64,000 nt of DNA, taken from contig JBBQHF010000004.1 in NCBI GenBank assembly GCA_038323715.1, positions 6,159-70,158 of the forward strand, written 5' to 3'. The notes below the pieces were generated by a model, which saw only the letters and a list, made by a program, of their open reading frames with translations, was not told the origin of the DNA and searched no databases. Of this stretch, positions 16,596-18,552 are shown piece after piece (the stretch's first letter is position 1; every line of letters starts with the position of its first letter). Made by a program: the position numbers and the translations under genes. This stretch comes from Patescibacteria group bacterium. GTDB taxonomy: Bacteria; Patescibacteriota; Patescibacteriia; Patescibacteriales; UBA12465.

Positions 16596-16706
16596 GCTTT
16601 ATTAACAAAATTGTTAGTTATTCATACTATTATAGTATACCATCCATTGAGTTAAAGAAAAAAGGTTAACAAAAAATCTCCAACATATATTGGAGATTAC
16701 TTGTTA

Positions 16707-16726
16707 GTAGTCCCCAGGGGAATCGA
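16707..16726 (-). repeat. Copy of the tRNA-Glu 3' end (T-loop 3' part plus acceptor 3' strand)
   Basis: GTAGTCCCCAGGGGAATCGA matches 18480-18499 at 19 of 20 nt. On the minus strand a hairpin plus T-run follows it (16672-16700). Confidence 0.7.
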
Positions 16727-16830
16727 GAGGTGGAGGAAAATTTTAAGACAAAAAATGTTTTGACTTTTTGCTGTTTTTGGGGTAATTTTAAAACATAAAA
16801 TAATGTAGCGTCCTCACTCCAAATAACGAG

Positions 16831-16849
16831 TTAGTAGTCCTTAAAGAAT
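16831..16849 (-). repeat. Degenerate copy of the same tRNA-Glu 3'-end motif
   Basis: TTAGTAGTCCTTAAAGAAT compared with TTAGTAGTCCCTAGGGGAAT at 18262-18281. Confidence 0.4.
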
Positions 16850-16874
16850 ATTTGGCCTAACAAAAATAATACTT

Positions 16875-17750
16875 ATGACTAAATTTGATTTACATTTTCA
16901 CTCCACTTATTCAGATGGCAAATTATCAATTTCAGAATTAGCCGAAATTATTAAAGAAAAAAAATTAGAATGCTGCGCTTTGACTGATCATAATACCGTT
17001 GATGGTATTTATGAATTAATAACTTCTTTAGCGCATTCTCCAGTTAAGGTTATTCCAGCTACTGAAATTACGGCGAAATACAATGACAATGACGTCCATA
17101 TTTTAGTTTATGATTTTGATATCGATGTGGCTGCAGAAATTTTAAATGAGCGCGACGAAATTATGCGACGAGAAAAAATAGAAGAAATGGAAGTCGCAAT
17201 TAAACTTTCTCGCCTAGCGGGGCTTGAAGTTAAAGATAATTTAAAGCCATTAGATAAGCAGTCGGTCAGTCTAACAGTTGCTCTTGATATTTGCGCTAAT
17301 AGTATTAACCAAAATAAATTTTTAGAAGAATTTGGGAAGAATCTTGTCCCAGAAGATATTTATTACATCTATCAGGCGCCAGGTAAGTCTTGCGCCGTAG
17401 AGCGAAGTGGCGTCAGCGTTGAGTGGGTCGTGCAAAAATTTAAAGGGATTGCTCGGGATCTTGTTATTGCTCACCCATATGTCTCCGTCAGCGTTGTCAC
17501 TAAACCACTTAATGAAGCAGAAATAGACGATTTACTTGAACTGGGATTAACCGGTATTGAAGTTTATCACAATAAGACTTCAGATGAGCAGATAGAGTTT
17601 TTAAAAACGAAAGTGCTTAGTAAAGCGGTTCATTACACTGGCGGGTCTGACTTTCATGGTCGGGAAAATGATACTCCAATTGGGCAATATAGTGCGGAAA
17701 CTCCTGTGCCAGATTTTAAATTATTGAATTACTGGTCTTTAAGCAAATAA
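16875..17750 (+). CDS. PHP-domain phosphoesterase
   Basis: FDLHFHSTYSDG, TDHNTVDG and GGSDFHG metal-ligand motifs. Confidence 0.8.
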   Translation: MTKFDLHFHSTYSDGKLSISELAEIIKEKKLECCALTDHNTVDGIYELITSLAHSPVKVIPATEITAKYNDNDVHILVYDFDIDVAAEILNERDEIMRREKIEEMEVAIKLSRLAGLEVKDNLKPLDKQSVSLTVALDICANSINQNKFLEEFGKNLVPEDIYYIYQAPGKSCAVERSGVSVEWVVQKFKGIARDLVIAHPYVSVSVVTKPLNEAEIDDLLELGLTGIEVYHNKTSDEQIEFLKTKVLSKAVHYTGGSDFHGRENDTPIGQYSAETPVPDFKLLNYWSLSK

Positions 17751-17756
17751 ATATAT

Positions 17757-18212
17757 ATGCAAAATAATATTAAAAAAAATAATATTAGCTACGGTCAGGC
17801 TATTAATAATGATGAGCCAAGCGTGAGGGATTTGTTGAAAAATTTAAATGGCGATAGATCAATGTTTGATATAAGTAGATTTTATTTAGCCAAGAATATG
17901 GATAAAGTTATTGGTTGTATTAGAATTAAAGCCCTTGGAAATAATTGTTTGGAGCTGGCTAGTTTGGGCGTGAGCCAGGAATATAGAAATAAGGGAATAG
18001 GTAGTAGATTAATTAGTGAGCTTTTATTAAAAGAAAAAAGTAGACCAGTATTTCTTTTAACCTCAGAGGACAAAGAAGTTTTCTATAAAAAATTTGGTTT
18101 TAATATTATTGAACCGCAAAAATTATCGATTGAATTTAAAAAAGAATATGATAAAATTGTCGTGTTGCCGTTTGCCAAAAACATAAAAGTTATTTCTATG
18201 ATTATCGAATAA
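17757..18212 (+). CDS. GNAT-family N-acetyltransferase
   Basis: Acetyl-CoA motif VSQEYRNKGIGSRL and C-terminal FYKKFGF. Confidence 0.75.
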   Translation: MQNNIKKNNISYGQAINNDEPSVRDLLKNLNGDRSMFDISRFYLAKNMDKVIGCIRIKALGNNCLELASLGVSQEYRNKGIGSRLISELLLKEKSRPVFLLTSEDKEVFYKKFGFNIIEPQKLSIEFKKEYDKIVVLPFAKNIKVISMIIE

Positions 18213-18225
18213 ATAATTATTTTAC

Positions 18226-18259
18226 AAAAAGAGACTCAATAATTTATTGAGTCTTTTTA
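18226..18259. terminator. Intrinsic terminator hairpin (bidirectional design)
   Basis: AGACTCAAT (18232-18240) pairs with ATTGAGTCT (18246-18254) across a 5-nt loop, with an A-run before and a T-run after. Confidence 0.7.
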
Positions 18260-18264
18260 AATTA

Positions 18265-18281
18265 GTAGTCCCTAGGGGAAT
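18265..18281 (-). repeat. Exact 17-nt copy of the tRNA-Glu 3' end
   Basis: GTAGTCCCTAGGGGAAT is identical to 18480-18496. Confidence 0.85.
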
Positions 18282-18445
18282 ATCGCGCTCAATCGCCGCC
18301 AGAATCGCGGCGATTTCACTTGTCCTGGGTTGGTGTCCGAATATCCCCCGGATATTCGTCCGACGCTCCCCTTTTCGCTTTGTCTTCCGCCAAAGCTCAA
18401 GACTCGCTTCCAACCTGTTCGCTTCCCGCGCCTACGGCGGCATAT
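18282..18445. ncRNA. GC-rich island, candidate structured RNA of unknown class (minus strand favoured)
   Basis: 94 of 160 nt are G+C in 18281-18440, against AT-rich flanks. 9-bp helices at 18291-18299/18307-18315 and 18338-18346/18350-18358. Terminator hairpins sit on both sides. The ORFs across it have no recognisable product. Confidence 0.35.
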
Positions 18446-18476
18446 AAAAAAGAACACATTACTGTGTTCTTTTTTA
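18446..18476. terminator. Intrinsic terminator hairpin (bidirectional design)
   Basis: AGAACAC (18451-18457) pairs with GTGTTCT (18464-18470), with an A-run before and a T-run after. It lies directly 3' of tRNA-Glu on the minus strand. Confidence 0.7.
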
Positions 18477-18480
18477 TATG

Positions 18481-18552
18481 TAGTCCCTAGGGGAATCGAA
18501 CCCCTGTTAACAGGATGAAAACCTGACGTCCTAACCACTAGACGAAGGGACC
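18481..18552 (-). tRNA. tRNA-Glu (UUC)
   Basis: Reverse complement GGTCCCTTCGTCTAGTGGTTAGGACGTCAGGTTTTCATCCTGTTAACAGGGGTTCGATTCCCCTAGGGACTA. Anticodon loop TTTTCAT. No encoded CCA. Confidence 0.9.

Follow-up and report, generated by a model that had tools for sequence, protein, structure and literature searches.

In the 64-kb stretch of DNA analysed here (the window), a tRNA-Glu(UUC) gene lies on the minus strand at 18480/18481–18552 (ARAGORN; 62 bits with the Rfam tRNA model). Its last 17 nt, from A58 to C74 (18480–18496; O), form a repeated segment. The 17-mer ATTCCCCTAGGGACTAC occurs on the minus strand at three sites: within the tRNA gene, at 18265–18281 without a mismatch to the tRNA-Glu end, and at 16707–16723 with one mismatch. 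With TCG included, the last copy matches at 19 of 20 positions (16707–16726). By chance 0.07 occurrences were expected and none of 100 shuffles got to three, which bears out the extra same-orientation copies of the tRNA-Glu 3′ end noticed in the initial annotation. The degenerate third copy reported there (16831–16849, minus strand; ATTCTTTAAGGACTAC+TAA) is weak but real. It shares only (TT)TAAGGACTAC+TAAC and matches a degenerate end variant that recurs in tRNA-Glu cassettes of relatives (CAGACTTTAAGACTAC followed by TAAT in loci L107 and L137, and TTTTCTAAGGACTAC in L228). The CTAA extension described as common to the two good copies was also found. Since ACTAC followed by TAA and a hairpin is present at the genuine tRNA-Glu genes of the relatives L024, L025, L126, L148, and L188, CTAA represents the native type of flank.

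Behind each of the two good copies stands a separate hairpin with a T-run, as the first description had it (stems at 18232–18254 and 16675–16698), and the present terminator of tRNA-Glu, at 18441–18480 (minus strand), is a hairpin that has a perfect 18-bp stem together with A and T tracts. This terminator forms the first part of a non-coding module of 198 bp (18282–18479) that adjoins the tRNA gene and otherwise consists of a GC-rich element of ca. 155 nt; the order tRNA, hairpin, element is the same in all relatives. The hairpin and T-run behind the second copy (18226–18259, minus strand) are also located just past the stop of the convergent GNAT gene on the plus strand (17757–18212), with the stem (18232–18254) 20 nt from that stop, and could therefore serve as a bidirectional terminator; this corrects the first description, which linked them to the copy. 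No gene now feeds the outer hairpin and T-run (16669–16700, minus strand), previously noted as an orphan terminator at 16672–16700. Its position is orthologous to the tRNA-Glu terminator hairpin (ATAGGTTAATAGCCTAT+TTTTTTGTTGAC) of CP066698.1.

Between the repeats, Pfam detected only two genes, encoding a PHP-domain phosphoesterase (16875–17750; PF02811) and a GNAT acetyltransferase (17757–18212; PF13508/PF00583), both on the plus strand, opposite to tRNA-Glu. The distal end of this island (16727–16804, minus strand) is homologous to a distal intergenic stretch of L228 and the start of a ca. 75-nt block, with 45 of 50 positions identical to the L228 island in a local alignment over ATTATTTTAT.TTTTAAAATTACCCCAAAA..AAAAGTCAAA. 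The block recurs in seven loci; located beside degenerate tRNA-Glu ends, it reads as the peptide LVVLKSEISQNFDGIIGEIEKWAEIL, with stops in some copies, and no intact gene was matched. The island is bordered by the host gene orf247 (15852–16595, minus strand). No integrase or recombinase was found in the 64-kb window, where tblastn with the L103 and L120 large serine recombinases gave no match, in agreement with the earlier remark that no integrase survives.

We compared this site with its counterparts in relatives. In CP066698.1 (L226; identities to the window of 78% for TsaD, 92% for YchF, 71% for orf247 at the amino acid level [positions 4397–5095 of L226], and 64% for orf95), an identical tRNA-Glu gene is directly followed by the orthologous terminator and promoter and by the orf247 and orf95 homologues ca. 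98 nt downstream; GNAT is missing from this empty site. The 3′ flank of this tRNA-Glu gene aligns with the flank of the window copy at 16707. Therefore, ca. 16727–18479 of the window is an insertion, and the copy at 16707–16726 (TCG+ATTCCCCTgGGGACTAC) and the hairpin at 16672–16700 are the displaced original tRNA end, marking the far insertion boundary, and its terminator. The ancestral order was tRNA-Glu, terminator, and orf247, as kept in CP066698.1. The more distant L228 (TsaD, 61% amino acid and 72% nucleotide identity; YchF, 75% nucleotide identity) has the insertion arrangement in common with the window: tRNA-Glu, terminator, a structured element like that of the window (127 bits, 84% nucleotide identity), an O copy, a terminator, PHP, and the homologous distal end. 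Its PHP homologue (81% amino acid and 85% nucleotide identity) occupies the same position behind tRNA-Glu and the element. The two closest relatives by TsaD (82% and 81%) gave no information on the site because tRNA-Glu does not adjoin TsaD there. The comparison of relatives proposed earlier thus gave absence in CP066698.1 and presence in L228; from these two relatives, we infer a gain in the window rather than a loss in CP066698.1. Of the two readings first offered, an att-type duplication with PHP and GNAT as cargo therefore applies to the copy at 16707.

The copy at 18265 belongs to the GC-rich structured element (18262–18435, minus strand; hereafter the unit). The unit has a GC content of 56% against a background of ca. 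30% and a fold z-score of −4.1, and scores 176.6 bits with the covariance model R1. It consists of a closing helix (P1), a stem enclosing two hairpins, a third hairpin, and the 17-nt tRNA tail at its end. The tail (18265–18281), followed by CTAA, provides the 3′ strand of P1 and the acceptor 3′ strand, while the 5′ strand of P1 is the motif GGGAAGCGAAC (X; 18417–18427, minus strand), which approximates the reverse complement of the T-loop and 3′ T-stem (GTTCGATTCCC) and pairs with the tail. In some units, a small P0 hairpin is present or X is extended, and one hairpin of many units is capped by a GGAA tetraloop-type loop, read directly from the sequences.

R1 yielded ca. 90 hits with E < 1e-9 in Patescibacteria metagenomes and genomes. 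The units of ca. 170 nt lie 42–55 nt behind tRNA genes of at least 15 isoacceptors, and the tail of each equals A58–C74 of the local tRNA, followed by a different terminator each time. The left boundary of the tail, ggttcg/A, holds over 15 isoacceptors and corresponds to G57/A58, and the identity between tRNA and tail spans exactly 16–19 nt in 29 of 41 units with an adjacent tRNA. X co-varies with the local tRNA (G/C in L057, GGAG/CTCC in L062, and with tRNA-Cys in L024); its near-invariance in the metagenome set is partly a selection bias because the search pattern included the X motif GGADTCGAAC; the pattern placed no constraint on the tail or on the T-stem portion of X. These results indicate that the module is not specific to tRNA-Glu and that its 5′ end carries a T-arm complement. 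The other reading first offered, in which a module with a terminator and a tRNA-like 3′ tail recurs, therefore applies to the copy at 18265, so that both readings are right, each for another copy.

In the consensus pairing, 90.9% of the cells were paired, compared with 67.6% when shuffled and ca. 35% when slid, and double changes were observed at 41 of 47 pairs. The pairs were asymmetric between strands (GU/UG 154 versus AC/CA 58; GA/AG 145 versus CT/TC 7), indicating that the tRNA-sense strand is the one that folds. The unit therefore has a strand-specific conserved secondary structure with compensatory changes, the generic mark of structured non-coding RNAs. A small ORF in the GC island was considered, but the overlapping ORFs had no Pfam match, and both the covariation and the G-U pattern agree with a structure rather than a coding sequence. 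A tRNA-like acceptor mimic was likewise rejected, as the acceptor strand of the tail has no conserved 5′ partner. Searches of Rfam 15 with cmscan gave only tRNA and chance matches in the window region (E ≤ 10) and only tRNA and tmRNA in 11 other unit-bearing loci (gathering score). Group I intron, tmRNA, Y RNA, 6S, and SRP models did not match the unit, whose architecture differs, and neither did the HEARO/omega-type families. A phage origin of the GC island was not supported by blastn (no match in 50,697 phage records) or by exact and pattern searches of IMG/VR, and a match at L101 was due to chance. No published description of the element was found in the searchable literature.

Unit cores that are 82–88% identical end in Ser, Gln, Glu, or Ala tails, which speaks for retargeting between tRNAs. 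The window core is only 78–79% identical to other Glu units, and the cores do not cluster by tRNA species, as would fit mobility. At the same tRNA, the unit is missing in the closest complete relative, and its occurrence is patchy among Falkowbacteria. L160 and L144 contain two units flanking cargo where L150 contains a single unit, and arrays of cassettes were found in L198, L192, L144, L146, L181, L057, and L107. The unit is the element nearest to the tRNA in ca. 45 loci and is only distal in two.

Large serine recombinase genes were found in seven unit-bearing loci, and such genes abut the same 17-mers in contigs other than that of the window. In L131 and L109, the 3′ ends of these genes run through the 17-mer, and the unit converges on the recombinase gene with no terminator between them. 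The 17-mer also occurs, with an identical left boundary, at a predicted prophage end from IMG/VR (L001). Most units have no adjoining recombinase, and clustering of neighbours revealed no single dominant protein family. The neighbours comprise PEP-utiliser-like proteins, nucleotidyltransferases, an HNH protein, an inositol monophosphatase-like protein, an LRR protein, and membrane proteins. When TnpB, IscB, CAST, IS110, and RT were considered as effectors beside the unit, clustering and inspection of neighbours gave only such diverse cargo.

The most likely explanation, which we hold with moderate confidence, is a recombinase-driven stacking of insertions between G57 and A58 of the T-loop. Judging from the anatomy, each incoming piece would bring its own copy of A58–C74 and a terminator, so that the tRNA would stay intact, and the previous 3′ end and terminator would be pushed downstream, leaving same-orientation copies that each have a separate hairpin and a flank of the CTAA type. 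The hairpin farthest out (16672–16700) would then be the original tRNA terminator. One piece would be an integrase-less cargo cassette with GNAT, PHP, and the decayed distal end (ca. 16727–18264), and the other, beside the tRNA, the 198-bp module. Site-specific recombinases acting in trans presumably cut between positions 57 and 58, the centre of the T-arm palindrome, in which case the displaced tail would automatically be the host tRNA's own end. X pairs with the 17-nt tail and closes a junction of three stems; unit and tail probably work as RNA or as folded single-stranded DNA, putatively serving as an end structure or a portable landing pad where further cassettes come and go. On the other hand, the recombinase link is drawn from seven loci, catalysis and excision are putative, and three 17-mers per apparent single island (in the tRNA, the unit tail, and the distal end) fit a tail integral to the unit equally well as a separate insertion. 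Stacking also leaves the fold unexplained, because a serine recombinase needs no structured arm of 170 nt.

Alternatively, the unit may be a genuine small RNA gene belonging to the host or island and not a recombination scar, a reading that we consider less probable than stacking but the strongest of its competitors. The RNA might be a tRNA 3′-end mimic or an anti-T-arm RNA, such as a decoy, a factor regulating tRNA maturation, or an antisense control of the recombinase gene whose frame crosses the 17-mer; selection or gene conversion would keep the tail identical to the neighbouring tRNA. The strong covariation, the G-U and G-A asymmetry on the tRNA-sense strand, the GGAA-type loops and purine-rich junctions, and the terminator after each unit agree with this, as do the nearly constant place closest to the tRNA (42–55 nt in ca. 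45 loci) and the convergent, terminator-free arrangement with the recombinase genes of L131 and L109. However, the closest complete relative lacks the unit at this tRNA, and its occurrence in Falkowbacteria is patchy, which implies that the unit is not an essential partner of the tRNA; cores that are not grouped by tRNA species fit mobility. Moreover, only ca. 10–25 nt separate the upstream hairpin from X, leaving no obvious room for a promoter, of which no clear one was seen, and 17 nt of repeat is little for gene conversion of the RecA type.

It is rather unlikely, though worth stating, that the unit represents a new class of functional structured RNA programming DNA capture at tRNA genes for a recombinase acting in trans; the T-arm-complementary 5′ motif and the 17-nt tail would then be the target-matching segments of a guide or bridge. 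If so, the unit with its 17-mer would be a reprogrammable landing pad for gene cassettes in reduced Patescibacteria genomes. TnpB omega RNA, the short tRNA-targeting crRNA of type V-K CAST, and IS110 bridge RNA guide mobile elements and combine a structured scaffold with a short terminal segment equal to the target, which for the unit is the end of a tRNA gene. By analogy, which provides a lead only, the unit could be a guide or scaffold RNA whose tail, X, or both specify the T-loop target, with GTTCG as the adjacent motif, a possibility to which we give little weight. The scaffold does end in a 17-nt segment equal to the target that starts right after the universal GTTCG, X is complementary to the same target, and the ends differ from tRNA to tRNA while cores remain ca. 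85% identical. Integration between positions 57 and 58 gives the same match of tail and X to each local tRNA without guidance, and is as a gene-restoring event the simpler account of the 17-nt duplication. Unlike in known guide systems, no nuclease, transposase, or recombinase ORF of the expected kinds (TnpB, IscB, Cas12k, Tns, or IS110-type) lay beside any unit examined, and the flanking ORFs were diverse cargo, none of them effector-like. The unit also has no sequence or Rfam similarity to these RNAs, including HEARO/omega-type families, and its tail is paired with X in P1, which would block the would-be guide.

A function of the fold as single-stranded DNA, comparable to integron attC or the attP of CTX phage, appears slightly less probable still. 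P1 might rebuild a duplex T-arm half-site through which cassettes could recombine when acquired or replicated in single-stranded form; strand-specific pairing that tolerates G-T, a P1 duplex sequence equal to that of the tRNA gene at the crossover, and cassette arrays with a structured element at each cassette end would suit this. In contrast, the three-stem junction, conserved unpaired purines, and GNRA-type loops are unlike an attC hairpin, P1 spans one half-site only, and no IntI or Xer-type gene was seen nearby. Finally, chance matches or local slippage duplications unrelated to mobile DNA, for which nothing speaks beyond the shortness of the repeats, are practically refuted by the expectation of 0.07 copies, the ca. 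90 places with the same architecture and tails matching 15 different isoacceptors, and the existence of both empty and filled sites.

Among known systems, the window island resembles Islander-type islands, in which, according to the available text (PMC4383910), integration restores the tRNA gene and a displaced fragment marks the island end; the intact tRNA with a displaced same-orientation 3′ fragment, the restored gene, the empty site, and an identity block from the T-loop to the 3′ end are all features in common. In the window, an intact tRNA stands at one end and a direct-repeat 3′ fragment at the other, and CP066698.1 has the uninterrupted site with both flanks matching. The window island differs in lacking an integrase, in inserts down to 198 bp, in the conserved structured non-coding element at its seam, and in that the recombinases at such seams elsewhere are of the large serine type, whereas tyrosine integrases are usual.

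In the tycheposons of Prochlorococcus described by Hackl et al., older elements are pushed outward in tandem by successive integrations. As far as the accessible part of that report goes (10.1101/2020.12.28.424599), they also share with the present system a streamlined genome, cargo islands anchored at tRNA genes, scattered partial tRNAs, degraded elements, and tyrosine or large serine recombinases, but it mentions no counterpart of the ca. 170-nt unit with a T-arm complement. Tandem accretion at one tRNA with partial tRNAs between was found here, with 3–4 copies in the window; the phylum is another, and the window island is without the hallmark integrase or replication genes.

Integron arrays consist of cassettes with 1–3 genes, each terminated by an element that is linked to recombination and conserved more in structure than in sequence. 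The cassette arrays with structured ends and presence/absence polymorphism are analogous, but the anchor here is a tRNA gene and not attI/intI, and cassettes occur in either orientation. No IntI was found, no recombinase lies in the window island, and no neighbour family dominates. Whereas attC is a single imperfect hairpin with R″/L″-L′/R′ boxes, the unit has a closing helix and a three-stem junction. CIME-type elements, decay products of specific ICEs, retain attL and attR without an integrase. They are similar, by analogy, as short integrase-less DNA between att repeats that is presumably mobilised in trans but, unlike the units, are not a conserved covarying family over many tRNA species.

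The genomes of Patescibacteria (CPR) are tiny and, to our knowledge, few mobile elements have been described from them. The locus suggests a concrete route of gene gain and loss, in which small integrase-less cassettes stack at the T-loop of a tRNA gene with nucleotide-precise seams, and reveals a widespread, strongly covarying element outside Rfam and the searchable literature whose ends match whichever tRNA precedes it. Should this element be an RNA for targeting or recombination control, it would represent a new type of programmable device for site selection. Even as nothing more than the structured end of a mini-element, it would be a useful marker for delimiting islands in CPR genomes and for annotating their GC islands and orphan terminators.

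The window is AT-rich and Falkowbacteria-like, with MAGs of Falkowbacteria and Patescibacteria as its top TsaD matches. Its tRNA-Glu(UUC) gene (18480/18481-18552, minus strand) ends in the 17-mer ATTCCCCTAGGGACTAC, which is repeated in the same orientation exactly at 18265-18281 and with one mismatch at 16707-16723, where identity continues to TCG at 16724-16726. These three matches against 0.07 expected by chance bear out the recurrence described in the initial annotation, and a weak fourth copy (TTTAAGGACTAC plus TAAC) was indeed present at 16831-16849. As had also been proposed, both good copies are followed by CTAA and then by a hairpin with a T-run (18232-18254 and 16675-16698); a perfect 18-bp hairpin (18441-18480) stands directly behind tRNA-Glu. 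PHP (16875-17750) and GNAT (17757-18212) genes lie between the copies on the strand opposite to tRNA-Glu. Among the 10 tRNAs of the window, only tRNA-Glu has extra 3'-end copies. The window tRNA genes mostly lack an encoded CCA; most have C right after the discriminator and then a long, perfectly palindromic A-tract/T-tract hairpin that looks like a bidirectional terminator.

The initial annotation had read the copies either as att-type duplications, with the PHP/GNAT block as insert, or as a recurring module with a tRNA-like 3' tail and a terminator. Comparison with relatives upheld the former: the complete genome CP066698.1 represents the empty site. It shares TsaD (78%), YchF (92%), orf247 (71%) and orf95 (64%) with the window, and its tRNA-Glu is identical. 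Its homologues of orf247, a host gene beside the island, and of orf95 lie ~98 nt downstream of tRNA-Glu, with only a hairpin and a promoter-like stretch between. This flank aligns with the sequence after the copy at 16707-16723, in the common order hairpin, TTTTTTGTT(G/A)AC, GGATG..TATAATA and ATGTATCCAAAATT.. Insertion at the tRNA gene displaced the old 3' end. It follows from the alignment that 16707-16726 is the ancestral tRNA-Glu 3' end, the hairpin 16672-16700 its terminator, and ~16727-18479 extra DNA. The hairpin, in which a terminator without a feeding gene had been recognized, lacks one because it is the displaced original tRNA-Glu terminator. The CTAA extension, present behind both good copies as claimed, is not foreign to genuine tRNA-Glu, since the genes of five loci (L024, L025, L126, L148 and L188) read ...ACTAC|TAA plus hairpin; it is the native flank type.

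The island was also found in GCA_038246415.1 (L228), whose TsaD is only 61% (amino acids) and 72% (nucleotides) and whose YchF is 75% (nucleotides) identical to those of the window. The layout is the same: TsaD, tRNA-Glu, terminator, GC-rich non-coding element (84% identity), 17-mer copy and terminator. Past the second terminator are opposite-strand genes including PHP (81% amino acid and 85% nucleotide identity), a distal stretch with homology to 16727-16804 of the window and, last, a degenerate tRNA end that has a terminator of its own. Presence in the distant L228 and absence from the nearer CP066698.1 is the pattern that horizontally mobile DNA usually leaves. Alternatively to horizontal gain, CP066698.1 could have lost the island through recombination between the repeats.

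The stretch 18282-18440 has 56% GC against a background of ~30%, and its fold beat 200 of 200 shuffles (z = -4.1). In eight of the GTDB loci retrieved through TsaD, the 3' end of tRNA-Glu occurs again 165-220 nt downstream, each copy matching its own local tRNA; the DNA between tRNA and copy contains a terminator hairpin and a core rich in GC and purines. The core begins with GGGGAATCGAAC (motif X), the reverse complement of the T-loop and 3' T-stem. RNAalifold on five sequences gave a closing helix P1 (X plus tail), a stem around two hairpins, and a third hairpin, with compensatory changes in 25 of 47 pairs. The window unit scored 176.6 bits with R1, the covariance model built for the family, which matched a second full unit in L057. 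In L024 (9150-9286, plus strand; 50.8 bits), a truncated unit without third hairpin and tail lies behind tRNA-Cys, and its X fits the T-arm of that tRNA; the corresponding tRNA-Cys flank of the window has no unit.

Structure statistics were calculated for 80 units (78 distinct). The proportion of paired cells was 90.9% (shuffled, 67.6%; slid, ~35%), the covariation score was 0.58 (shuffled, 0.18; slid, 0.05-0.07), and 41 of 47 pairs showed double changes. G-U/U-G exceeded A-C/C-A (154 vs 58), and G-A/A-G exceeded C-T/T-C (145 vs 7); therefore, the tRNA-sense strand folds, as RNA or single-stranded DNA, and the fold is conserved on this strand. C-GGAA-G, read directly from the sequences, caps one hairpin in many units, which leans towards RNA rather than single-stranded DNA. 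No Rfam family matched the window region or the other unit-bearing loci searched, and a literature search found no description of the unit. The recurring-module reading holds for the copy at 18265, which belongs to a structure-conserved family; the copy at 16707 is a displaced tRNA end.

A metagenome scan with an internal pattern yielded at least 120 loci, and R1 confirmed at least ~85 units among those listed. Among the matches listed, units lie 42-55 nt behind tRNA-Glu(ttc, ctc), Gln(ttg, ctg), Ser(gct, tga, gga), Phe, Val, Gly(gcc, tcc), Asn, Trp and Ala; Cys is a further partner, with a truncated unit. Each tail equals the 3' end of its local tRNA, and the terminator behind it differs from tail to tail. 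Tail and tRNA were identical over exactly 16-19 nt in 29 of the 41 units with an adjacent tRNA, from ggttcg|A (A58) to the base after the discriminator (or CCA); the boundary is exactly at G57|A58. The search pattern included the X core GGADTCGAAC, which in part built X invariance into the metagenome set; it placed no constraint on the tail, on the T-stem portion of X or on tRNA identity. Cores 82-88% identical have Ser, Gln, Glu or Ala tails, and the window core shares just 78-79% identity with the Glu units of L024 and L025. The core therefore re-associates with different tRNAs, and the exchange of partners outpaces core divergence. At almost every locus, the unit lies closer to the tRNA than any other piece. 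At L116 (3240-4084, minus strand), tRNA-Ser(tga) and tRNA-Ser(gct) are followed after only 12-18 nt by two units, without an intervening terminator; in both units, an 18-nt X is complementary to the gct-type 3' end and the tail is tga-type, which suggests exchange between isoacceptors.

Units stand in tandem or 1-3 kb apart with 1-3 diverse genes between. By eye, the cargo comprises PEP-utiliser-like proteins, nucleotidyltransferases, an HNH protein, an inositol monophosphatase-like protein, an LRR protein and membrane proteins; no dominant protein family was found among the neighbours of units. Cassettes were gained and lost between units: L160 and L144 carry 808 nt of cargo between two copies of a 221-nt segment (tRNA end, terminator, unit and 17-mer), and the near-identical L150 has a single copy. 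Large serine recombinases occur in seven unit-bearing loci. The recombinase genes of L131 and L109 are convergent with the unit, and their last codons (MLGDRD or WLGDRD) match the 17-mer in reverse complement; degenerate remnants of 17-mer plus flank upstream of many distal units look like the native 3' end of such a gene. A predicted prophage end in IMG/VR (L001/L014, IMGVR_UViG_2808606666_000001) reads ATTCCCCTAGGGACTAC plus TAA and a hairpin (1832-1851, minus strand), with A58 as left boundary as in the units. Related viral contigs begin ~190 bp inside the 17-mer point, and no tRNA gene was found in the 4.5-kb stretch of the prophage contig scanned.

Other features were observed at tRNA loci. 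A conserved ~75-nt block adjoins degenerate tRNA-Glu ends in L021 (2452-2529), L022 (4409-4486), L046 (435-515), L107 (820-897 and 2581-2658), L126 (8959-9033 and 9847-9921), L137 (1905-1991) and L228 (~4745-4815), and partially in the window (16727-16750). Its opposite strand reads LVVLKSEISQNFDGIIGEIEKWAEIL, with stop codons in some copies; the block may represent a 3' end split off from a gene across the attachment site, or a second cassette-end type. In another Patescibacteria genome (L050, 6926-7206, minus strand), two tandem 104-nt repeats at tRNA-Glu each hold the whole tRNA 3' half, from anticodon stem to 3' end, which indicates that the crossover here is a different one and lies in the anticodon loop. 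In L053, a 14-nt partial copy of the genome's own tRNA-Glu end (CCCAGGGATCACAA, ~6135-6150) falls within an opposite-strand ORF of 94 aa, ~250 nt downstream of tRNA-Glu, and a GIY-YIG-like small ORF stands between tRNA-Glu and the orf95 homologue. In the window, the ~600-nt AT-rich spacer from tRNA-Cys (19750-19824) to YchF (20437-21543) contains three DnaA-box-like sites in 66 nt (19859-19924), one perfect (TTATCCACA) and two with one mismatch; the whole window has 26 such sites vs 16 expected. The cluster may be an origin-related or DnaA-regulated region. The CTGTGGATAAC..TGTGTATAAATA motif occurs behind tRNA-Cys in L024, too.

The window locus resembles classical tRNA-integrated islands (PMC4383910) and tycheposon arrays in its behaviour. 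Membership of the former includes an integrase, and the window island has none; the window contains no large serine recombinase gene like those of the unit-bearing loci, in line with the earlier remark that no integrase survives. A site-specific recombinase acting in trans, probably a large serine recombinase, would cut the T-arm palindrome at its centre. This would make the displaced tail host-derived, and the replacement 3' end and terminator would be supplied by the incoming piece. At least two pieces would have entered the window, the 198-bp unit module and the GNAT-PHP cassette, and a third may survive as a remnant marked by the degenerate copy at 16831-16849. As for the role of the fold, an independent small RNA, a guide-type RNA and an attC-like single-stranded DNA site rank second, third and fourth. 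With no known counterpart found, the structured unit is a candidate new element class, whose fold would, in the first-ranked option, be the end or landing-pad structure of non-autonomous cassettes.
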